A stretch of DNA of 64,000 nt from Pecten maximus (lineage: Eukaryota): NCBI RefSeq assembly GCF_902652985.1, contig NC_047024.1, forward strand, positions 22,382,001-22,446,000, written 5' to 3'. Numbering within the stretch: the first letter of the stretch is position 1; every line of letters begins with the position of its first letter. The notes beneath the pieces are model-generated. The model saw only the letters and a list, made by a program, of their open reading frames with translations. It made no database searches and was not told the origin of the DNA. The position numbers were made by a program, and so were the translations under genes. Positions 23,301-46,100 of the stretch are shown in pieces.

Positions 23301-24582
23301 ACAATCACATATGTGCATTTTGTTCACATATGACGGACACGATCATCGATTCACGTAACACCTGACAGACAAGCATGTTACGTGAGATTGAAACTTCGGT
23401 TACATCGAATTAAATAAACTACTGTTTACTCTTGTAAAATATGTATTCTAATGATTGAACTTTGGAAAGTATATTATATGACAAAATAAAATCACGGTCT
23501 TAAAAATAACTGATATATTACACATGTGTCTGTCATTTGTCCACACATGTTACGTGACATTTCTGTTCCGTTACGTGCGATGTTTGATAATTGTAACCAG
23601 TTTAATATTTAAGAAAACTGACTTTAGCTTGATTTTATTTCCTTTTTTATAGAAACAATGTTAACAATAGGTTCAAGATCATTTTAAACTACACTTAATT
23701 TTAAAAAGATAAAGTAAATATGGCCCATTATGAACTTATCATTGCACGAAAATTTGCTGAATTTTAATTTTAATCCACATCTGTTGTCATTCAATATCAC
23801 AAAGAACTATTATTATTTCGTTCAGCCAATGTATATGTATGTGTATTAATAAATTATTATCAATAATCATGATTAAATAAAATTAATTTTGAATCATCAA
23901 GGTGTTATATAAGATCTAGTTAGACTTTTTGTATCTAAATAATTGGAATTTTAAGGAATGTTTTCAACTTTAAACTGTGGAACTTTACATATATTAATAT
24001 TTTATAATTACTGTTATAATAATTATATTGATATATAAACATATATTGATCTACATGTAACACAAAACAGTAACAAATTAATACTATTAAAGTAGGAAAT
24101 ATAATGTAGGCACTCATAAATTGAAAGTTTAAAATGTACGTCCATGCTCGTTTAATCGCATTCATATAGGCTACCAAGGGCAAGTACTATTCTGGTTGAA
24201 AGTTGACCAGGATTTAGTAGCAAAAATAAATAATCTTAATATATATTGTGTCAACAATTACATGTACGAGAATCTTTTGTATTGTCTCTTCGACTGAATC
24301 ATCCATTTCAGACCAGATGTTGCCTTATTGGTCAAATAGAATGGTTTTATTATATATAAAAAAAAAAAAAAAATTATGTATACATTTTAAAACAAGTTTT
24401 GTGATATGAATAAATATGAAATTCATTCTATTTGCTTAATAATTTGATATGACACTAGCTAATATTGGCTCAAAACATACATATAAAAAGTATTTACTTG
24501 GTTGATAAATTCTTTATTGCATATTCACTCAAGTCAGATCCTCATTAAAAAAAACAAATTTCATTGTAGAGTACCAAGCAAC

Positions 24583-27500
24583 ATGCCCAGCAAACTTAAA
24601 GTGGTATTAAAGAATACACACGATAAAGAAAAACATGCTGAGCGAATGCGAGTGGCCAGACATGAATGGTCGGAGGAGCAAAAGCAAAAAAACCGAGAAA
24701 TGTCCAAGATCAGAATGAGGGAATACAGAGAAAGAAAAAAGACGGAGAGAGAAAAGACAAACAATTCAGAAGTCCGAAAAATGGCAACAAGACAAGAAAA
24801 AAAAGCAAAAGAAGAGCAAAATAAAAGAAAAGCTGAATACAGAAAGAAATATAGAGCTGGCTTGTCAAGCCAAAAGAAAAGGCGTATACGAGAAAAAGAT
24901 GCAAAAAGAAAGCAAGAAAAGAGGTGCAAGAATATGATAGGAGCAACGACTGTTGTCCAATCAGTACCTATCACAACTGAGAACACAAAGACCCCTTTGT
25001 CTGACAGTGCTTTAAAAAAGGCTGTCTACCGGGCTAAAAAGAGATTGCCAAAGTCTCCATCCAAATTTGCAGATGTTGTTTCTGGCCTTGTAAGCAATGC
25101 CACACCAAGAAAAAAACTTGCTTTAAGCAATAAAGGATTGGATTCCTCTGAAACAAAGAAAAACTTGGACAATATCCTGCAATCTATCAAAGATGTGGAC
25201 TTAGATATGAGAGGAAGGGACAGAGAGAGTCGTATGAAAAGGAAGAGTTTTATTGGGTCCCTCTCTGAACATGTTAAGAAAAGACACGGAATGACATCAA
25301 CTTTCAGCGCAGCACTTGGCATACAAAGAAAGTACTTTTCACAAGGGTGTCTTAAAGAACAAAAGAAAAGAAAAGACTGCATTGCTAAAGAAACAGAAGA
25401 GTCAATCCAGAACTTTTTTTGTCAAGATAATGTGTCGACTAACTTACCAAACAAAAAAAACATCAAGAAAGATGCTGTAGAGTGTAGAGTTATCCAAGGA
25501 TCACTTCACAGTGTATGGAATAAATGGAAAGAAGCAAATCCCAACAAAGCTATTTCATATGACAAATTCACCAAACTCAAGCCTAAGGTTGTTAAAACAC
25601 AAAAACACAGAAAATACCTGCAGTGTTTGTGTGAATACTGCGAGAATCTAAGATTGAAGATGGTAGCTATCAACAAGCTTTCTCAAGAACAGAAGCCTAC
25701 ACTAAAAATGAAAAGTATCCAGGAGGCCGTGGAGAAGACTCTTTGCCCCAGGACTGGTCCATTCCACAGCCTTAAATGTATTGACAGGGAATGTGTAGAC
25801 TGCGGAACCGGAAAACTGCATGCAGACCTCATTGCTGCATTAGAAGAAAAAGACCAAGAATGGAAAAAGTGGGCGCTACAAGTATCGATAAACAAAAGAA
25901 ATGGTAAAGAAATAAAAAAGAAAGAACTCACAGTTAGTAAAGGAAAAACATCAGAATTGATTGCTGAATTTGAAAAAGAACTCCACTTCCTCTCCAAACA
26001 CTTATTTGAAGCCAATTGGCAAATTTCGCAGTTCGGAATTCTGACCAAAAACATTCCACCTGCAACAATTGCTTTAGCTATTGACTTTGCCGAGAACTAC
26101 TCTTGCATGTCTCAAAATGAAGTACAATCAGCACATTGGTCAAAAGAATCTGTTACAATACATCCCGCAGTTGTTTATTATCAATGTCCCACCTGTCCAG
26201 GTGAAGTGGTGGAGGAGTGTTGCGATATCATCAGCGATGATTTAATACATGATGCCCATGCTGTTAATGCCTTTCTCCATAGAATATTCCAACATCTGAA
26301 AACTAAGAGAGGATTGCAGGTCAATAAAGCATTCATTATGAGCGACGGTTGCGCGGCACAATACAAGTCAAAAATTCCATTTTGTGACGCAGCGAACGCC
26401 ATCACTGAGTTTGGGTTTATAGTGCAGCGCGACTTCTATGGGTCCAGACATGGGAAAAATAGGTGTGATGGGGAGGGGGGCGTTTTAAAATCGAGGGTGA
26501 CAAGGGCGGTCAAAAACGGCGAGGCTGAGATTGTCTCAGCATCAGACTTTTACACCTTTTGTAGGGACAACCTCGAAAAGGACTCCAAAGATGATAATGG
26601 AAAGTGTCTACACAAGAGAAGGCATCTTCTCTATGTTGCATTGGAAAACATTCAAAGACCACGCCCTGAAAGAAACATTCGCACCATTCCAGGCACTCAA
26701 AAAATCCATTCACTGGTTGGCGTTGAAAGGGAAATGGTTAAGACAAGGCGTCTGTCCTGTTTTTGCCAGAATTGCCTATATGGTACACCCGAGAATTGCC
26801 AGCAGAAGGAGTACATAGATCAATGGAAGCCAATTCGCCTGAAATGTATCCTTTATAATGTTAGAATGTTAGAATTTTATATTTATAATTTATATGAAAA
26901 TAATTATCAAATTGGAAAACAAAAATATGACAAAACGATTATAAAAATTCTTGACCCAATTAAGATCTCCAACAACCACAACCAGCTGTTGATGTCCAGC
27001 CCATGGTACAACCTGTTGATGTCCAGCCCATGGTACAGCCTGTTGATGTCCAGCCCATGGTACAGCCTGTTGATGTCCAGCCCATGGTACAACCTGTTGA
27101 TGTCCAGCCCATGGTACAGCCTGTTGATGTCCAGCCCATGGTACAACCTGTTGATGTCCAGCCCATGGTACAGCCTGTTGATGTCCAGTCCATGGTACAG
27201 CCTGTTGATGTCCAGTCCATGGTACAGCCTGTTGATGTCCAACCCATGGTACAGCCTGTTGATGTCCAACCCATGGTACAACCTGTTGACTTCCATCATG
27301 AATTACAGCCACACGATACCATGGTTAGAGTTTTTATTATGATAATCTAGTAATGTTGTTTTTTTCAAATTGAGCTTCATTGAGGTTAACAAAGGATTAA
27401 CATATTCTAAAGTTCATATATATTTTTTTAATCAGGTTCTTGCCCAGTCTGTAGAAGATATTCAAGCCCAATCAGTCCATGACCAGACACAAGATAGTAG

Positions 27501-30593: not shown

Positions 30594-32630
30594 CTATTCT
30601 ATGACATGACAGTTTGCCTGCATCGCGTAACACTGTTTGATTGCCTCCTGGCAGTTGTTGAAATCCTGCCAGGGAAGACACAGGTTCTGCTGCAGGAATT
30701 GTAGGTGTTTGTTCAACACATGAAGGGTGTGTTCTGGTCCCTGATTCCCAGACAGAAACTTCTCTAGGACAGCGCGGAAGACTTTGTCCGAGCATTCCAG
30801 CGTAAGAATGGTCTTGGCAAGCTTCTGTGTGTACTTACAGATGGTACACTTGGCAGTTTTCGTGGTGGTGTTGACTGTTGACAAAGCACCGTTACACTTT
30901 TCACACTTGTAAGTAGGCGTCTCGCTAGGTATGTTGAAATACATCGGCCACACATTCTGACAGGGGAGACAATTACATACAAATTGGTACTGCGACAGCT
31001 TTTTTTGGCGATCAGATTTTGTACTCACTGCATACACTGCGCCATAGTTATCCAAGATTTCTTGACCCTTTGAAATTTTCTTGATGGCTCTCACTACACA
31101 AGTATCCCCGTAGGAATGACGGACGACATCTGGATCACACGAGTGGTTGAATAGACTAAGCATTGCATATATGGCAGAACCAATTTCTTCCCCAAGAGAT
31201 TCAGCAACCATAGTTCTCCTCAATTTTAATTCAGAAACTTCATGAGCGTTGCATGGAAGCATCTGTATGTGACGAAGAATGTGACCTCCTATATACATCA
31301 GGTCCTCCTGTCGTCTTTCTGTCGAAGGAACAAAAGAGGAATTCTCTATGCATTTCACAAGGAAAACAGTGTTAATTGTCCTTTTCAAAAGATCTGTAGT
31401 AGTTCGTTTTTCACAATGATTCACTAAGTTGTAGACAGTGTTGTAGTCATTGGAGTCATAAACCCCATCCTTGTTGAACCCCGATCCAAATGAATCACCA
31501 ACTCCATCAGCTATATTCTTATATTCCTTCAAATACTCAAATCCAGCTTTCAGAACCATTCGAAATGACAGATGTCCCAAACCCAGCTGAGCAGCTTGAA
31601 TATCACCAAGATGTTCGCATTCTACGTAATGATAGGTATCCCAAGATTCCCTTTCACACTGACGTGAACAGTAGCCAACTCCAGCACAATTACGACACGG
31701 GAACGGACAGAATAATTTCTCGCAGCAGTTGTGACAATTTGATACGCTAAATCCTGGCAATGTCACCGACATATAGGCTTTCTCTACAACAAGGACATCA
31801 CCAATGTTTATGTCGTCTGTTGCATATATGCCACGACCGGTTTCCTCACTTTCTTCCATGGTAACGGCAATAGATGCATTGGGAAATTTCTTGCTTCTTT
31901 GTGTTATCACTGGTAGAGCAGAATGACACTTGTTACACTCAGCTTGGGTTTTCATAACTTTTTTATGTTGATCATCTTTCATTTTGTCACAAGCTACAAT
32001 CAACTTGTCCAATTCCTCTGTTATCTTTTTAACTTTATCTTCATCCAAGTCAGATATCTTTATTTGATTTTTCGCTTTCTCAAATGCTTTAATTGCCTCT
32101 TCTCCCCATTTCAACTGCATGTAACACTTTCCTTTCCTGTCGTAAAGTTTGTACTGCAGATTTTCTGGATAACCATTTTCTAAAGCAAGCTCAATGTCTG
32201 CCAGACACAATTCATCCTTTGCCATATGAAACAACACTGCTGATCTATTTGCAAATGCCAAGGCTAAAGTTGGAGTTTTATCAATGTTACCATTATCTTC
32301 ATTAGAATTACTGCTTCGCCAGGGTGAGAAGAGAACACTCTGTGTATACAAATCAAGAGCCTGCTTGTATTTCTTCTTTTGGAAAAAAGCATTTCCCTGG
32401 TTACGAAGACTAACAGCTACTTCGTCACATTTTTCTCTGAAATTTGGATTTGCCTGAATGACATCTTGTGCAATTGGAAGTTTATAAATCAAACTCACTC
32501 GTTCTTCATTAGATGTGCACTTATCAAATTTCTTTCTCAATTCTTCCAAGTTTCCTTCATCTCTTAAGCTGTCAGCAATTTTATCATACCATTCATCTGC
32601 ATTGTTCTTGTTCTGTGAAGTAGATGCCAT
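30594..32630 (-). CDS. SMYD4: SMYD4-like SET and MYND domain lysine methyltransferase (~678 aa, single coding exon)
   Basis: N-terminal TPRs (RNQGNAFF..., FANRSAVL), split SET domain (GRGIYAT; LFNHSCDP; EILDNYG), MYND finger (CHNC..CRNC..YCSRQC..H..EC) and post-SET CNCLPC. ATG at 32630, with a splice acceptor at 32652-32653. Confidence 0.88.
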   Translation of the reverse strand: MASTSQNKNNADEWYDKIADSLRDEGNLEELRKKFDKCTSNEERVSLIYKLPIAQDVIQANPNFREKCDEVAVSLRNQGNAFFQKKKYKQALDLYTQSVLFSPWRSSNSNEDNGNIDKTPTLALAFANRSAVLFHMAKDELCLADIELALENGYPENLQYKLYDRKGKCYMQLKWGEEAIKAFEKAKNQIKISDLDEDKVKKITEELDKLIVACDKMKDDQHKKVMKTQAECNKCHSALPVITQRSKKFPNASIAVTMEESEETGRGIYATDDINIGDVLVVEKAYMSVTLPGFSVSNCHNCCEKLFCPFPCRNCAGVGYCSRQCERESWDTYHYVECEHLGDIQAAQLGLGHLSFRMVLKAGFEYLKEYKNIADGVGDSFGSGFNKDGVYDSNDYNTVYNLVNHCEKRTTTDLLKRTINTVFLVKCIENSSFVPSTERRQEDLMYIGGHILRHIQMLPCNAHEVSELKLRRTMVAESLGEEIGSAIYAMLSLFNHSCDPDVVRHSYGDTCVVRAIKKISKGQEILDNYGAVYAVSTKSDRQKKLSQYQFVCNCLPCQNVWPMYFNIPSETPTYKCEKCNGALSTVNTTTKTAKCTICKYTQKLAKTILTLECSDKVFRAVLEKFLSGNQGPEHTLHVLNKHLQFLQQNLCLPWQDFNNCQEAIKQCYAMQANCHVIE

Positions 32631-32795
32631 TGTAATGGAGAGCTGGTGCACCTAGAAGACAAAAATATGAAACTAGAGTATTGATTTAATTAATCTATAA
32701 ACAATTAAATCTAGTTAGAATACATAATGGGTGACAGGTTTTCTCCTATTTTGTATATTCACGACTATTCTGTATAATATGAGAGGAAAAATGTA

Positions 32796-34927: not shown

Positions 34928-35897
34928 AACAAGAGGCCCAGAGGGCCTGTATAGCTCACATGGTTTATTTGAGCAAACATCAAAATAATTGTTCCATTTG
35001 TTAATATCTTATTTGTTGATGTCTAACAATTCTATATTATATGATTATGGGATGGGAATCTCAACTGCTTTAGAGATATAACCTAGAAACGAAGTCAAGA
35101 TTCAACATGGTTGTGTTTAAAGAAACTATCAGTCCCTTGGGGTGGTGAAAGACCCCTGGGCCTATTTTTACATCAGAAATGTGTTCATCTCTTGATGCCC
35201 AGCAATGCTATACACTTTATATGGATATGGGGTGGGGATCTGAATGGTTTCAAAGATGTTACCACTGAAATGTCAATGTCATACATTGCTTAGTTCCAAA
35301 GATAAAGTCATTAAGGGTAATATCAATTATATTGCCAAATGGACTCCTTTTGGCCCTGCCCCTGGGGGGTCAGCCCCACCATTTGTACAATTTTAATCTG
35401 CACATCTTATGGATGCTACCAGTTAAATGTGAGAAATATCTATTGCTTAGTTTCAGAAAAGACATTTATATCAATTAGCCAAATCGACTCCTTTTGGCCC
35501 CACCCCTCAGGTCCCCAGGGGTCAGCCCCACTATTTGTTCAATTTTGTATCTCTACCAAATACAGATGAAGACATATATTAGCTATATCCATTGCTTAGT
35601 TTCAGAGAGGTAGTCGTTTATCAATTTAGCCCCATCATTTGTAGTTTTTAATCCCTACCCAAAAACCATGTTACCAGTCGAATACATGTACAAGCGATAT
35701 CCATTGCTTAGTTCCACAGGAGAATTCATTTATATCAATTAAGCCAAATTGACTCCTTTTTATCCTCCTCAGCCCCACCATTTGTACAATTTGTAATTCC
35801 CACCCCATAATGATGCTACCGTTCAACTCCGATCAGCGGTTATGAAGAAGTCAATTGTTGACGAACGCCACAGTATGGCATAAGCTCACCTGGTCCA
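34928..35897 (-). mobile_element. Older HINE related to the 39153-41793 element
   Basis: AACAAGAGGCCCAGAGGGCCTGTATAGCTCAC at one end, decayed ~145-155-bp units, and GACGAACGCC..ATGGCATAAGCTCACC at the other end. Confidence 0.8.
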
Positions 35898-37173: not shown

Positions 37174-40100
37174 TCAGTCCTCGTAGTCCGGATTCTTTCT
37201 CAGTATTACGAAGCCTTCCATCAGTGGACTCAGCGGTAGGTCTGTTCCAGGTTAAGGAAACAACTTACATGATTTATACATCCCATCGTTCCCCAAAGAT
37301 AATCTAGTGATATCAGTTTTATAATACCACTCAATACCAACTTACAGGATTTATATGTGTACTGTAAATCACTTAGATTTCATGAACTTACATTTCCAGG
37401 CATTTTCACGAATACATGGTTTCGCAATCATTGATCTAGAAATGATTTTGAATTCACAAATGATGAGCTATTAGTGTCACAGACTCTGCAAGACTCCCAT
37501 ATTGGAAACCATAGCTTGGTTGCCATCCGAAGGTGTTATTTTCGTACAAATAATTATGAAGAATTTTAATTCACAATTGACTCTCCTCACATATATTTAT
37601 GTGAAAATAAATCCATTGCGATAAATATAAATAATTTACAGTAACCCTCAAAACTGATAGCCTAATGAAAACATTCAGGATTATATAAGGATTTAGAGCC
37701 CCCCTCAAAACTGATAGTCTGGTGAAAACATATAGGATTTTATAAGGATTTATAGCCCTGGCCACTGATAGCCTGGTGCATAGCCCCCGCCCTCAAAACT
37801 GATTGTCTGGTGAAAACATAGGATTTTATAGAGATTTATAGCGCTGGCCCTCAAAACTGAAAGCCTGGTGAAAACATAGGATTTTATAGGGATTTATAGC
37901 CCCCGGCCCTCAAAACTGATAGCCTACCGGTAGTGAAAACATAGGATTATAAAGGGATTTATAACCCACCCTCAAAACTGATAGCCTGGTGAAAAGATGC
38001 AGGTTCTTGTAGCCTTTTATATGACAAAATCTCTTGACAACATAAAAGTTGTATATATCTTCTCAAAACTGACCTAGTAGAGACAGAATTTTTAATACTG
38101 TAAGCCAAATCTTTTGACAGCATACAGGTTCCATATAGCTCCTCAGTACCACCGACCTACGGTCAGCACCAGGCAACTGGCCAACGTAAGTTTCGAACTC
38201 ATAACCCAGAGTTGGAGGGCTAGAGATAAATTGTCAGGATACCTTAACCATTCAGCGACTGCGGCCCGTTACCAATGTGTTTAATTGCTCACCATACGAA
38301 AAGAGTTTCAAAATTCTATTTGAGTTCTAAGAAACCAAAGGCATACATCTTATTTGAATCCTGACTTCGTAGTTTTATTTCAAATTTCTCTTTAAAACCC
38401 AATAATATAATAGGATTTCATCAAAAGAAAGGATACATTCCTCCGTGGCAAGTTCCGCCCTCTCGCCATAAGCCAACAGTACTGGTGTGGTATGTGTCTG
38501 GAATCCAGTGATGGTTTTTGGCTTACCTGCTTGCCCAACTACATCAACAGCCTGTCGAGGATAAAGAACACAGCTATAACCTACAAACATTACAGTTTTT
38601 CTCCCAAATGATATTGGTTAATAACACGTTCTCCCTAATAATATCGGTTAATAACACTTTCTCGCTTATAATATTGGTTAATAACACTTTCTCCCTAACA
38701 ATATTGGTTAATAACACGTTCTCCCTAACAATATTGGTTAATAACACTTTCTCCCTAATAATATTGGTTAATAACACTTTCTCCCTAATAATATTGGTTA
38801 ATAACACTTTCTCCCTAATAATATTGGTTAATAACACTTTCTCCTTAATAATATAGGTTAATAACACTTTCTCCCTAATAATATTGGTTAATAACACTTT
38901 CTCCCTAACAATACTGGTTAATAACACTTTCTCCCTAATAATATTGGTAAATAACACTTTCTCCCTAATAATATTGGTTAATTACACTTTCTCCCTATTA
39001 ATATTGGTTAATAACACTTTCTCCCTAACAATATTGGTTATTATTATATAATGTGTATTTATCCATATTCTCATTGGCTAAATCGCTAACACGTGACTTT
39101 TGATAAATAGCGATAATAACTGGTTTCCAAAGCAAAACCAGTTAATATCAAAACAAGAGGCCCATGGGGCCTGTATCGCTCACCTGGTTGGATTTGACCA
39201 AATGTCAAAATAATGTTCATGTTCAATTCCTTTTGTTTGTTAACCTCAAACAATGCTATTTATGGTTATAGCGTGGGGATCCCAACTGCTTTAAAGAAAT
39301 AATGAAGTCCAGACTCTCTGAGTTTACAACATGCATTTATAACTTTATGACTAGTAGTGATTTAAAGGAATTACCTCTATTTCCTATATGGGGCCCCGCC
39401 CCTTTTGCCCCTCGGGGGTCAGAGTCACCATTTATGCAAAATCTGTTCCCCTTCCCCCAAGAATGTTTCTTACCAAATTGGGTTCAAATCCATTCATAAC
39501 TTTATGACTAGTAGCGATTTTAAGGAATTACCTCTATTTCCCCATTAGGCCCCGCCCCTTTGGCCCCTTGGGGGTCAGAGTCACCATTTATGCAAAATCT
39601 GTTCCCCTTCCCCAAAGAATGCTTCTGACCAAATTGGGTTCAAATCCATTCATAAATTTATGACAAGTAGCGATTTAAAGGAATTACCTCTATTTCCCAT
39701 ATGGGGCCCCGCCCCTTTGGCCCCTTGGGGGTCAGAGTCACCATTTATGCAAAATCTGCTCCCCTTCCCCAAAAGATGTTTCTTATTAAATTGGGTTCAA
39801 ATCCATTCATAACTTTATGACTAGTAGCGATTTAAAGGAATTACCTCTATTTCCCATATGGGGCCCCGCCTCTTTGGCCCCTCAGGGGTCAGTCACCATT
39901 TATGCAAAATCTGTTCCCCTTCACATAAGAATGTTTCTGACCAATTTGGGTATAAATCCATTCATAACTTTATGACTAGTAGCGATTTGAAGGAATTACC
40001 TTTATTTCCCCATTAGGCCCTGCCCCTTTGGCCCCTTGGGGTCAGAGTCACCATTTATGCAAAATCTGTTCCCCTTTCCCAAAGGATGTTTCTTACTAAA

Positions 40101-43100
40101 TTGCGTTAAAAACCATTCATAACTTTATGACTAGTAGCGATTTAAAGGAATTACCTCTATTTCCCATATGGGGCCCCGCCCCTTTGGCCCCTTGGGGGTC
40201 AGAGTCACCATTTATGCAAAATCTGTTCCCCTTTCCCAAAGGATGTTTCTTACTAAATTGCGTTAAAAACCATTCATAACTTTATGACTAGTAGCGATTT
40301 AAAGGAATTACCTCTATTTCCCATTTGGGGCCCCGCCCCTTTGGCCCCTTGGGGGTCAGAGTCACCATTTATGCAAAATCTGTTCCCCTTCCCCCAATGA
40401 TGTTTTTGACCAAATTCGGTTCAAATCCATTCATAACTTTATGACTAGTAGCGATTTAAAGATATTACCTCTGTTTCCCCATTAGGCCCCGCCCCTTTGG
40501 TCCTTTGGGGGTCAGAGTAACCATTTATGCAAAATCTGTTCCCCTTCACATAAGAATGTTTCTGACCAAATTGGGTTCAAATCTATTCATACCTTTATGA
40601 CTAGTAGCGATTTGAAGGAATTACCTCTATTTCCCCATTAGGCCCCGCCCCTTTGGCCCCTTGGGGGTCAGAGTCACCATTTATGCAAAATCTATTCCCC
40701 ATCCCCAAAGGATGTTTCTGACCAAATTGGGTTCAAATCCATTCATAACTTTATGACTAGTAGCGATTTAAAGGAATTGCCTCTATTTCCCCATTAGGCC
40801 CCGCCCCTTTGGCCCCTTGGGAGTCAGAGTCACCATTTATGCAAAATCTATTTTCCATCCCCAAAGGATGTTTCTGACCAAATTGGGTTCAAATCCATTC
40901 ATAACTTTATGACTAGTAGCGATTTAAAGGAATTGCCTCAATTTCCCCTATTGGGCCCCGCCCCTCAGGCCCCTTGGGGGTCAGAGTCACCATTTATGCA
41001 AAATCTGTTCCCCTTTCCTAAAGGATGTTTCTGACCAAATTGGGTTCAAATCCATTCATAACTTTATGACTAGTAGCGATTTTAAGGAATTACCTCTATT
41101 TCCCCTAATGGACCCCGCCCCTTTGGCCCCTTGGGGGTCAGAGTAACCATTTATGCAAAATCTGTTCCCCTTCCCCAAAGGATGTTTCTGACCAAATTGG
41201 GTTCAAATCCATTCATAACTTTATGACTAGTAGCGATTTGAAGGAATCACCTCTATTTCCCCATTAGGCCCCGCCCCTTTGGCCCCTTGGGGGTCAGAGT
41301 CACCATTTATGCAAAATCTGTTCCCCTTCCCCAAAGAATGTTTCTGATCAAATTGGGTTCAAATCCATTCATAACTTTATGACTAGTAGCGATTTAAAGG
41401 AATTACCTCTATTTCCCCATTAGGCCCTGCCCCTTTGGCCCCTTGGGGGTCAGAGTAACCATTTATGCAAAATCTGTTCCCCTTCCCCAAAGGATGTTTC
41501 TGACCAAATTGGGTTCAAATCCATTCATAACTTTATGACTAGTAGCGATTTAAAGGAATTGCCTCAATTTCCCCTATTGGGCCCCGCCCCTCAGGCCCCT
41601 TGGGGGTCAGAGTCACCATTTATGCAAAATCTGATCCCCTTCTGCCAAGGATGTTTCTGACCAAATTTGGTCAAAATCCAATAAGAACTTTTTGACTAGT
41701 AGCGATTTGAAGCAAATGTTGACGGACGGACGACGGACGACGGACGCTGCACCATGGCATAAGCTCACCGGACCTTCGGTCCAGGTGAGCTAAAAACCAG
41801 TTAATAACACCGGCGCTAAAAAAAGATTATGACAAACCAGTTAATAACACCTCCGCTAAAAACAGATTCTGGAAATACCCTACCGGAAGTTACGTAATAC
41901 CATAGCAACGCATAGGAAATGGCTGCGTCTGCTGTTTCGCCGGATTCGAGTCCTAAAAAAATGTGGTTTGCGTCTCTAAACGATGAGAACATTAACAAGT
42001 TAATGACAGAAAAGGATTCCATAAACACAAGAAGAGCGACAGACTCAGCTGTAAAAAATTTTAAGGAATATTTAAAAGAAAAGAACGTGGCAGAGGACGT
42101 TGAGACTTTGGACTTTGAGTTGAGTACGTTTATCATTTCATCATATATACTTTGATTATATAATAAAACAGTTATGGACTTTTTATGGACTTTTCGGCTT
42201 TGCCTCGGTCAATATTAGTTCCATTCTGGTTAATATCAGAGCATATTAACCAAGTAAAAAGTCCATAATTGTATAATAACACATTCTCCCTAATAATATT
42301 GGTTAATAACACTTTCTCTCTTATAATATTGGTTAATAACACGTTCTCCCTAATAATATTGGTTAATAACACGTTCTCCCTAATAATATTGGTTAATAAC
42401 ACTTTCTCCCTAATAATATTGGTTAATAACACGTTCTCCCTAATAATATTGGTTAATAACACGTTCTCCCTAATAATATTGGTTAATAACACTTTCTCTC
42501 TTATAATATTGGTTAATAACACTTTCTCCCTAATAATATTGGTTAATAACACGTTCTCCCTAATAATATTGGTTAATAACACGTTCTCCCTAATAATATT
42601 GGTTAATAACACTTTCTCTCTTATAATATTGGTTAATAACACTTTCTCCCTAATAATATTGGTTAATAACACTTTCTCCCTAATAATATTGGTTAATAAC
42701 ACGTTCCCCCTAATAATATTGGTTAATAACACGTTCTCCCTAATAATATTGGTTAATAACACTTTCTCCCTAATAATATTGGTTAATAACACGTTATCCC
42801 TAATAATATCAGTTAATAACACTTTCTCTCTTATAATATTGGTTAATAACACGTTCTCCCTAATAATATTGGTTAATAACACTTTCTCCCTAACAATATT
42901 GGTTATTATTATATAATGTGTATTTATCCATATTCTCATTGGCTAAATCGCTAACACGTGACTTTTGATAAATAGCGATATTAACTGGTTTCCAAAGCAA
43001 AACCAGTTAATATCAAAAAACCAGTTAATAACACCGGCGCTAAAAATAGATTATGAAAAACCAGTTAATAACACCTCCGCTAAAAATAGATTCTGGAAAT

Positions 43101-46100
43101 ACCCTACCGGAAGTTACGTAATACCATAGCAACGCATAGGAAATGGCTGCGTCTGCTGTTTCGCTGGATTCGAGTCCTAAAAAAATGCGGTTTGCGTCTC
43201 TAAACGATGAGAACATTAACAAGTTAATGACAGAAAAGGATTCTATAAACACAAGAAGAGCGACAGACTCTGCTGTAAAAAAATTTAAGGAATATTTAAA
43301 AGAAAAGAACGTGGCAGAGGACGTTGAGACTTTGGACTTTGAGTTGAGTACATTTATCATTTCATCATATATACTTTGATTATATAATAAAACAGTTATG
43401 GACTTTTTACTTGGTTAATATGCTCTGATATTAACCAGAATGTAACCATATTGACCTCGGCTTTGCCTCGGTCACTATTAGTTCCATTCTGGTTAATATC
43501 AGAGCATATTAACCAAGTAAAAAGTCCATAATTGTATAATAACACATTCTCCCTAATAATATTGGTTAATAACACATTCTCCCTAATAATATTGGTTAAT
43601 AACACTTTCTCCCTAATAATATTGGTTAATAACACTTTCTCCCTAACAATATTGGTTAATAACACGTTCTCCCTAACAATATTGGTTAATAAAACTTTCT
43701 CCCTAATAATATTGGTTAATAACACTTTCTCCCTAACAATATTGGTTAATAACACGTTCTCCCTAATAATATTGGTTAATAACACTTTTCTCCCTAATAA
43801 TATTGGTTAATAACACTTTCTCCCTAATAATATTGGTTAATAACACTTGAATATTGTATCATCATATCATGTTTTACTATTATAAACACCAAAATATTGC
43901 TTTATATTGTATCCTCATGACTTAAACAACACAATACCAAACAATGTGTTGTCACGATAAAGACACATAACAATTCTCATTGTAGTATTTTTATTACCTG
44001 TCCAACTCTCACAGGAACAGGAAGTGGTCGAAGTTCCTCATCGAAGGTAGTTAACATACGCGGCTGCATGGCCGCCACAAGGTGGTATAAGATGTAATGA
44101 GATTTACCTAGGATGACTGCAACAAAAATCAGCAAAGTGAAATAACATGAGACAAATATCAGAGCAGCTATCATGTACATGTATATATATATATATGGAA
44201 ATAATTTTCAACTGAAGCAAATTACAAAGGAGATATAAATATTAGCATGAAGGAATTGATACGACGTAACTTGTTCTTGGAAATACAGACATTCTGGGTC
44301 TTTCATTATATGCATGTGATATCATCAATAGAATTTACACTGTTTCATTTCCATAAAACATGTGCAATATTTTTCAATATCAAAACCTTGAAATTCTTGT
44401 TGACAAAGATCTTCATTTATATCTTCAATATCTGCCTTATGGTTGAAAGTGAAATAGAGCTTACAGTAGTATATATGTACAATTTACTTCCTCAACAACA
44501 GACATTGACAACAGTGAATACTTACGATTTTTTACATCAAGACAGGAGACGAGGACAGCCATAAGCCCGGCGACTGCGACTGGTGACATGAGGGTTCGGT
44601 CGCTGTGGTAGGGAGAAAGAGTCAGTGTTCCCTTGCCCAAATGAGCCAGACCTTGTGCTAGACGCACCATGAACAAGTTATTAGGGTCCTTAGCATGGTA
44701 CACAGCTAATTGTCTTAACATAGCAGCTAGACGAGCATTATTTGTTCCTACAAAAAAAAATACAAAATAACAGTCAAACCTGAAATCATTTATTATAAAA
44801 AAGTACACTTAATTTACCAGACTAATGACATGTATTTATTTTACTGTAATTTCAAACCCTTCAGATATATTTTTAAAGAACTAATACTCTGTGACGAAAG
44901 TATTTTGAAACTCTTATAATTCTATGAAGACAAACACATAAAGACTTAAATACTATATACATCTTTTAGCAGTATAAATCTTAATTGAGTGATTTTAACA
45001 CTTAAAGCATTCCGCTAAATTTTGATCATGCTAACGAGTGTAATATTGTACAATGCTTTCTATGGCAAGCATTTTCAATTTGTAGCACCAATTCACAATG
45101 GTGCTAATCTCTTTCATAGGTAATTTGGATACATCCTAAATTTGAACGTGCCATAATAAGTATAACTTTACAGTACCATACGTATCCAAAAATAAGCTCT
45201 TTCTCACAAATAAGCCCTCTTCCTAATTTTTGCAGAATCACCAATGTTATGATAGTAAGCTAAGAGGCTCACAAATAAGCCTTTCCCAACTTTAATATTT
45301 AACTTTCACTCTAGGCAAGGGGGCTTATTTTAAGAGGAATAGGGTTTCATATTTCTCAAATAGCTGGTACATATAGACAAACAAGTTTTACCTGCTCCAA
45401 CAAGGCCCATGGACAAAATAGCATTATGGGCCACCTCAGTGTCATTGTCGTGAGAGAACTTGCTCAGTGTGTCCAGAATATTTAATTTGGGGTTAGACAC
45501 AGAAATCAGACCAAGGGCAAGTGGTACTGCTCGCTTTATTGCCGGTTCACCATATCGCAGCTAGAAATAACAAGTGAATTACAAAAGTATGAATATCAAT
45601 GTTGAGATGTTTTTCATTTCTATCAGATAAAAAACATGTATAAAATTTAAATCCTAAATTGCTATTAATGGGAATATTTTCTGAATTGAAGACTGAGCTG
45701 ACTGCAATTAGTGTTCAAAGAATGTTAATAGCATGACTGCTTATATTGACTTACCAAGTGTCCAAAAGCTCTAAAAGACATTTCTGAACCAATTTCTTCC
45801 CCCATAGCTATCAAACCCACACCTAATACTGCAATTCCTGAAAAAATCAAAACAATGGCTGTCAAATCATAAGCTCAAACATCAGCAATACAGTAATATT
45901 TACAATATTCCTTGAGAATCATTAACGAGTCAAAATATCAACAACTAAGATCACTGAAAATGATATCACATATTACAGACCAACAGTGACAACTTCAGTT
46001 CAGTGAAGTCAAACATGTAATAGAAACAGCCTTGTTTATTCAGCAGCTTATAAATGTAAACAATTCCGTGATGACATTATTATTCACACCAAACCATTTT

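Follow-up and report, generated by a model that had tools for sequence, protein, structure and literature searches.

The 64,000-nucleotide window analysed in this study, from the scallop Pecten maximus (NCBI RefSeq assembly GCF_902652985.1, contig NC_047024.1, positions 22,382,001 to 22,446,000), harbors two copies of a short element that interrupt a 30-bp minisatellite, and an initial annotation made from the letters alone had described this element as Crypton-like. Genome-wide analysis revealed the family to which it belongs, the intact parent of that family, a target consensus, the crossover position, an inner complement of the joined element ends and a recurrent hairpin tip. The explanation that best accommodates the data as a whole, and that we regard as reasonably probable, is that a single insertion at this locus was followed by duplication, and that the element moves in circular form, the bottom strand of the circle being predicted to fold into a recombination site. 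By its Pfam matches and its anatomy, the element is assigned as a non-autonomous derivative of CryptonA type.

The element family and its recombinase-encoding parent

The family comprised about 30 copies in 918 Mb, as recovered by a DNA search of the animal's own genome and by exact end patterns, which located 24 5' ends and 23 3' ends genome-wide. The autonomous partner that the initial annotation had anticipated was found as an intact element of 2,059 bp (G000:C12:32202661-32204719; L046:1162-3220), with a two-exon open reading frame (ORF) that encodes a tyrosine recombinase of 460 aa and contains no stops. This parent, the only intact one found, is hosted by a 25-bp minisatellite and shares 98-99% identity with its closest derivatives; the second element of the window (copy 2) consists of its first ~432 and last ~199 bp. 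The Crypton-like character of the element was borne out by the R-H-R-Y residues of the parent, namely R (GRRGREN), HxxR (HCLR), H (GHK) and Y (KTY), which were kept in 11 of 11 aligned proteins, and the HxxR and H residues also coincided with those of XerA (5hxy), though the match was weak (E=0.3). When the exons of the parent were scanned separately, matches to QRICH1 and Phage_integrase fell below the cut-off, and an intronless paralog (L047, about 42% identical) gave DUF3504, QRICH1 and Phage_integrase above the cut-off; no match to a GCR1_C domain was obtained in the Pfam scan of the parent exons and this paralog. The same Pfam families (QRICH1/DUF3504/Phage_integrase) were borne by the recombinase homologs, of which the closest named ones are bivalve. 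Moreover, target-site duplication was absent, the tandem units running through the junction without gain or loss, and the 5' TTAT of the element was found to match the WTAT of the target as a microhomology.

These features agree with those of animal CryptonA elements (DUF3504 group) as described by Kojima and Jurka 2011 (PMC3212892). The features in common are a single tyrosine-recombinase gene, a length of ~2.06 kb, the lack of target-site duplication, internally deleted derivatives that outnumber the parent and the QRICH1/DUF3504/Phage_integrase Pfam matches; CryptonA-1_OL is listed at 2073 bp in the supplement of that paper, which also derives ZMYM2/3/4, QRICH1 and KCTD1 from the recombinase group of CryptonA. 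That study found no terminal repeats in animal Cryptons, and the scallop family differs from the elements described there in its ATAW-N6^WTATYA target, fixed 7-nt spacer, 3' palindrome and inner complement.

Element ends, target site and a possible folded recombination site

The flanks of the family copies gave the target consensus ATAW-N6^WTATYA, with the crossover at ^; duplicate loci (L017, L020, L029 and L063) and fragments lacking ends were left out of this tally, and copy 2 of the window was kept out of the matrix. On the left, A(-10), T(-9) in 22/27, A(-8) in 24/27 and W(-7) were followed by six freer bases, the last of which was W in 25/27; on the right, the consensus read W, T(+2) in 22/23, A(+3) in 21/23, T, Y and A, with A favoured at +8 (15/23), and this right half of the target is a mirror of the element's 5' terminus. 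A(-8), W(-7) and W(-1) were present in all of the 10 5' flanks from five other families; two of these flanks may represent one duplicated locus. At the right end, the spacer TTGTATA was found in 20 of 23 family copies, with one or two changes in the other three, and YTGTATA was found in 8/8 copies of the five other families. The TTGTATA 7-mer occurred in none of the left flanks, and the left junctions retained the six bases of the target. The crossover is located on one side of this nearly invariant 7-nt spacer, and, by the usual geometry of tyrosine recombinases, it is the bottom strand that is exchanged at the spacer's right edge.

The 3' end of the family is a 144-nt palindrome, which lies at 43392..43535 in copy 2 (DNA fold of -60 kcal/mol, z -17). 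Joined ends read as 3' arm, TTGTATA and 5' terminus (junction ATAA-TTGTATA-TTAT), and the inner arm of the palindrome continues, reverse-complemented, as 3' arm, a 5-nt spacer and 12 nt identical to the 5' terminus. In copy 2, this inner site, which reads as the predicted circle junction in reverse complement, is placed at 43379..43408 on the minus strand, and the modelled junction paired with the inner arm across a bulged 7-vs-5-nt spacer in an in silico fold. A palindrome of this kind was present at 18 of the 22 recombinase loci compared, and the inner complement of the joined ends was recovered at 11 of the 17 scored loci (8 families), 5 of the 22 paralog loci having been left out of the scoring because the stretch retrieved lacked a palindrome or a 5' part. 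Across families, the 5' arm covaries with the inner complement (TTATTATATAAT, TTATTATTTTTC, TTATTATACC, ATAATTTTA). In addition, 11 of 13 loci have a hairpin tip of the form cGNAg on the bottom strand, where N can be any of A, T, C and G, and loops of the cGNAg type are unusually stable in DNA. An integrated family copy (L048:2655-3312; G000:C19:2160154-2160811) was found to have its interior inverted and to contain an exact end-to-end junction, with the terminal spacer present in both hairpin arms.

Two further observations concern the palindromes. In another Crypton family, the 3' palindrome at L136 (G000:C8:9684536-9684558) runs into 5'-like sequence, which may be a second head-to-tail junction. 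Furthermore, the palindrome centre appears flipped at L011, L013 and L016, a pattern that template switching or cruciform repair would produce.

The covarying inner complement, the one-sided crossover and the one-strand cGNAg tips together point to a folded single-stranded att site. In the mechanism proposed here, the recombinase would join the element ends into a circle with the junction ATAA-TTGTATA-TTAT; on the bottom strand, the 3' palindrome would zip up and the junction would pair with the inner complement, so that a duplex site is formed in which the 7-vs-5-nt spacer bulges; a single strand exchange with the target would then occur at the right edge of the spacer; and replication would resolve the exchange and complete the insertion, as in the CTX phage and in integron cassettes. 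That animal CryptonA elements use a single-stranded circle in this manner, with the bottom strand folded into an integron/CTX-like att and exchanged once with a loose ATAW-N6-WTAT target, is in our estimation just on the favourable side of even. The one-sided genomic products (left and right junctions) fit a single strand-pair exchange without proving it.

Several points weigh against the folded-site model. Neither a circle nor a single-stranded form was observed, and a circle of double-stranded DNA could also be the starting point of a one-strand exchange. At 6 of the 17 scored loci the search for the inner complement gave nothing, the 5' end was fixed by a single copy in 4 of the 8 families (several copies in the other four), and two of the 13 tips were not cGNAg, with one of the counted tips (L131) in a weak fold.

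The strongest competitor is the classical Crypton model, in which a double-stranded circle recombines and the palindrome and inner site serve as accessory binding or regulatory sites or as a cruciform. This is the published model (PMC3212892, PMC13565253), and the 2026 review (PMC13565253) assumes a double-stranded circle and describes Crypton transposition as undemonstrated by experiment. Family-specific motifs common to the 5' region and the palindrome do resemble binding sites, and replication-resolved single exchanges have been described for several elements that exploit Xer (PMC9226527). However, neither an inverted copy of both ends that covaries nor the occurrence of cGNAg on one strand is foreseen by the classical model, and under it two exchanges between unlike spacers should give both product types, of which only one was seen. 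We consider it a substantial possibility, if a less probable one than the folded single-stranded site.

The predicted logic of the folded site is the same as that of the CTX phage attP (PMC9226527) and the integron attC (PMC2727003), where a one-strand hairpin rebuilds the site with an unpaired central spacer and a single exchange is resolved by replication. Those systems are bacterial, use host XerCD or IntI and have been shown experimentally, whereas the scallop element resides in an animal genome, encodes its own DUF3504-type recombinase and is placed beside them by deduction; it would work alike without being a member, and no sequence relationship exists beyond the recombinase fold. CryptonF-1_cRei of Chlamydomonas (PMC9977147) likewise inserts site-specifically without duplication, and the copy number of this active CryptonF was seen to rise although excision is expected. 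It differs in using a near-identical 5-bp donor and target (CACCG/CAYCG), whereas in the scallop family the arms carry the specificity and the spacer needs little homology. DIRS elements, for which PMC13465315 describes short direct repeats and an internal complementary region, are also tyrosine-recombinase elements with internal sequence complementary to their own termini; they are, however, retrotransposons with a reverse transcriptase, and the scallop element encodes a recombinase only. In the literature covered, with Repbase entries and subscription papers outside its scope, no account of this end structure in Cryptons was found.

The minisatellite locus and its history

The whole array lies within an intron (38552..43997, minus strand, AG/GT exon edges) of the PSMD2/RPN1 gene for a 26S proteasome subunit, and the adjacent exon at 38441-38551 matched Pfam RPN1_C (E=3.7e-21). 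As annotated initially, two elements separate three satellite blocks of about 15, 21 and 10 units: Tandem Repeats Finder gave 14.8 units of 30 bp in block A (38598..39040, plus strand), 21.1 in block B (42274-42905, plus strand) and 10.4 in block C (43537-43848, plus strand), with GGTTA^ATAACAC as the point at which each element breaks the unit. Next to the element edges, blocks B and C are set at 42276..42905 (21 units) and 43539..43848. The size of 630 bp given to the element holds for copy 2 (42906..43538, plus strand, 633 bp), but copy 1 (plus strand) extends over 39041..42275 because it contains a 2,639-bp insert that had been overlooked, as had a deletion of ~40 bp of the inner hairpin arm; without the insert, copy 1 measures 596 bp. 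The count of about a dozen substitutions between the copies was accurate, since 13 were found outside the insert, 2 of them at the deletion edge. In copy 2, two 40-bp repeats of the 5' region (43016..43099, plus strand) each contain GTTAATAACAC, and a truncated recombinase ORF of 78 aa (43143..43379, plus strand) matches the N terminus of the parent over its first ~65 aa.

The insert in copy 1 (39153..41791, minus strand, edges within a few bases owing to an A run) is a non-autonomous element of Helentron/HINE type. It has sub-terminal inverted repeats at 39178 and 41782, an inverted repeat at 41763, a GACG microsatellite, a terminal palindrome at the 3' end, a central tandem array of 15.2 units of 156/157 bp (39334..41712, no strand assigned) and a T-rich insertion site without target-site duplication. 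This layout is that of Cg_HINE, the oyster Helentron derivatives, as published (PMC7492417), and the likeness is one of layout to that description; the scallop insert differs in being a passenger in a Crypton copy.

A single insertion at a generic target, followed by duplication, is very probably the origin of the two copies, and this had been raised as a caveat in the initial annotation. Both copies have the same phase and orientation and share the flanking variants CTAACAATA and ACACATTCT, which are rare as had been stated, with 8 occurrences of the former in about 46 units and 3 of the latter, 2 of them at the junctions. Moreover, both carry a C>T change at the hairpin tip (43464), where the cGAAg of the family is lost, and 15 other copies keep the C. 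In the history proposed, a single insertion at an ATAW-N6^WTATYA site in a locus-specific intronic minisatellite would have been doubled by unequal crossing-over, and the Helentron insert and the ~40-bp deletion would have struck copy 1 later. The best reading is that the duplication occurred early, or by unequal crossing-over between long-diverged alleles.

Some data argue against a simple late duplication. The two copies resemble each other no more than typical family members do, 31% of 300 pairs in the family being equally close; only one derived change is shared, at a CpG, and T is found at the same tip position in the truncated copy L013, at its breakpoint. Both shared flank variants are shifted toward the element's own end sequence and therefore could have been selected twice. 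The phylogeny of the family copies was star-like, with little signal as proof of duplication. Contigs from public runs (4 of the 24 listed) matched to each copy were unitigs of 50-200 bases, none spanning the array.

The initial annotation had further proposed that the satellite is an array of att-like half-sites that attracts the element, or that it was generated from the insertion site. Neither idea was upheld. The satellite was locus-specific, with 37 of 38 exact matches to the unit 17-mer at the window locus, GTTAATAAC was found in 0/30 flank sets of other copies, and no related motif was enriched in the 30 flank sets (P 0.06-1.0), six looser motifs giving P 0.06-0.64 against dinucleotide shuffles; copies were thus neither concentrated in one satellite nor marked by its motif, and targeting of the window satellite by the family as a whole is rejected on these grounds. 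The outer edges of the array lie ~10 nt off the crossover phase, which argues against an origin of the satellite from the insertion site. A motif shared by coincidence had been expected to go with a satellite found only here and with random flanks elsewhere; the satellite was indeed confined to this locus, but the flanks were not random. Since they share ATAW-N6^WTATYA, any unit of the satellite is acceptable as a generic target, and when scored on a matrix built without the window the phase at which the elements sit ranks 3rd of 60 in the unit, two other phases scoring higher. As far as tested on sequence, the satellite is probably not a special landing pad for the element.

The motif common to satellite and element was located as annotated, with GTTAATAACAC twice in the 5' region of each copy (41800, 41840, 43024 and 43064) and TGGTTAATA in the 3' hairpin (42227, 43412 and 43490, and on the reverse strand). 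The sharing of GTTAATAACAC is probably due to chance. The alternative appears improbable; in it, the satellite would either have attracted the element by repeating the element's own binding motif in an array or have descended from the 40-bp repeat of an older copy. The shared 11-mer is mildly unusual (P=0.017 in 2000 unit shuffles), 0/93 background arrays reach 11 shared bases, and 2 of the 11 other host arrays with a period of 60 or less reach 10. The element contains 8 occurrences of the motif YRGTYAATA, across the 5' region and hairpin, and the host array L010 also has TAATAACACC, though at a different phase. In addition, the satellite resembles the 40-bp repeat in 23 of 28 columns in a gapped alignment under one scoring scheme (P 0.002-0.01), which counts against chance. 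Across five scoring schemes, however, this likeness ranged from P 0.004 to 0.33, and the host array L008 scored equally high, so that derivation from the 40-bp repeat is borderline and dependent on the scheme. Against attraction or descent also stand the flank sets described above, the generic target core, which overlaps most of the 11-mer, the lack of a Crypton remnant in the outer flanks of the array and the lack of an intermediate form of satellite and repeat elsewhere, the latter under a search pattern that required the gap and hence did not list the element itself. As a separate observation, each Crypton family at L124, L119, L047 and L117 repeats a motif of its own in the 5' region and palindrome (e.g. 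GTTATGTCACCCTC), and these are likely accessory binding sites.

A general preference of the family for minisatellites is at most weak in a genome rich in tandem repeats. Under a loose rule, 10 of 19 two-ended sites lay within arrays against 22% of a 390 kb background (P=0.003); under a strict rule, 7/19 lay within them, which compares with 20% for the background (P=0.06) and with 25% for motif-matched sites (P=0.18). Of the best-scoring background target sites, 39% fell in arrays. Tandem arrays, mostly with periods of 10-60, occupy about a fifth of the sampled sequence of this genome (L064-L102, 39 stretches of 10 kb each).

An assembly artefact, in which two alleles of one insertion were stitched in tandem via the satellite, is quite unlikely. 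The copies show an allele-like divergence of ~2%, and the assembly has duplicate haplotype-like contigs (L014/L017 and L061/L063), but block B has unit variants of its own (CTCTTATA units) and runs in perfect phase between the copies. About as unlikely is a double origin, in which separate insertions, or a local hop, struck the one array and each chose the best-matching variant unit: the copies are as distant as unrelated family members, the junction units of host arrays deviate 15 times toward the element's end sequence, 7 away and 6 neutrally, and A is favoured at +8, but these stand against the scarcity of the family (about 30 copies only), the two better-scoring unit phases and the tip mutation common to both copies. 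At L003, L010, L046, L060 and the window junctions, the units hit tend to be rare variants that fit the element's end better than the array consensus, which may reflect fine target choice or short conversion. The satellite part of this story is ordinary.

Other features of the window and implications

Elsewhere in the window, an open frame of 951 codons (24487-27342, plus strand) gave no Pfam match; its cysteine motifs, together with SDGCAAQYK, are reminiscent of transposase-like proteins. An intronless SMYD-like SET/MYND/TPR gene (678 aa scanned) lies at 30594-32651 on the minus strand, a second HINE-like element, related to the nested insert, begins at 34929, and a dispersed 120-bp repeat at 38148-38267 is 84-88% like its copies in L123 and L125.

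In conclusion, the target consensus, crossover position, strand polarity and intact parent make Crypton transposition open to direct assays, and the parent found in this genome offers a ready-made substrate for testing the folded-site model. If true, the folded site would give eukaryotes a counterpart of folded-DNA recombination and account for the gain in copy number, and the predicted folded ends would explain how the poorly understood Crypton class moves.

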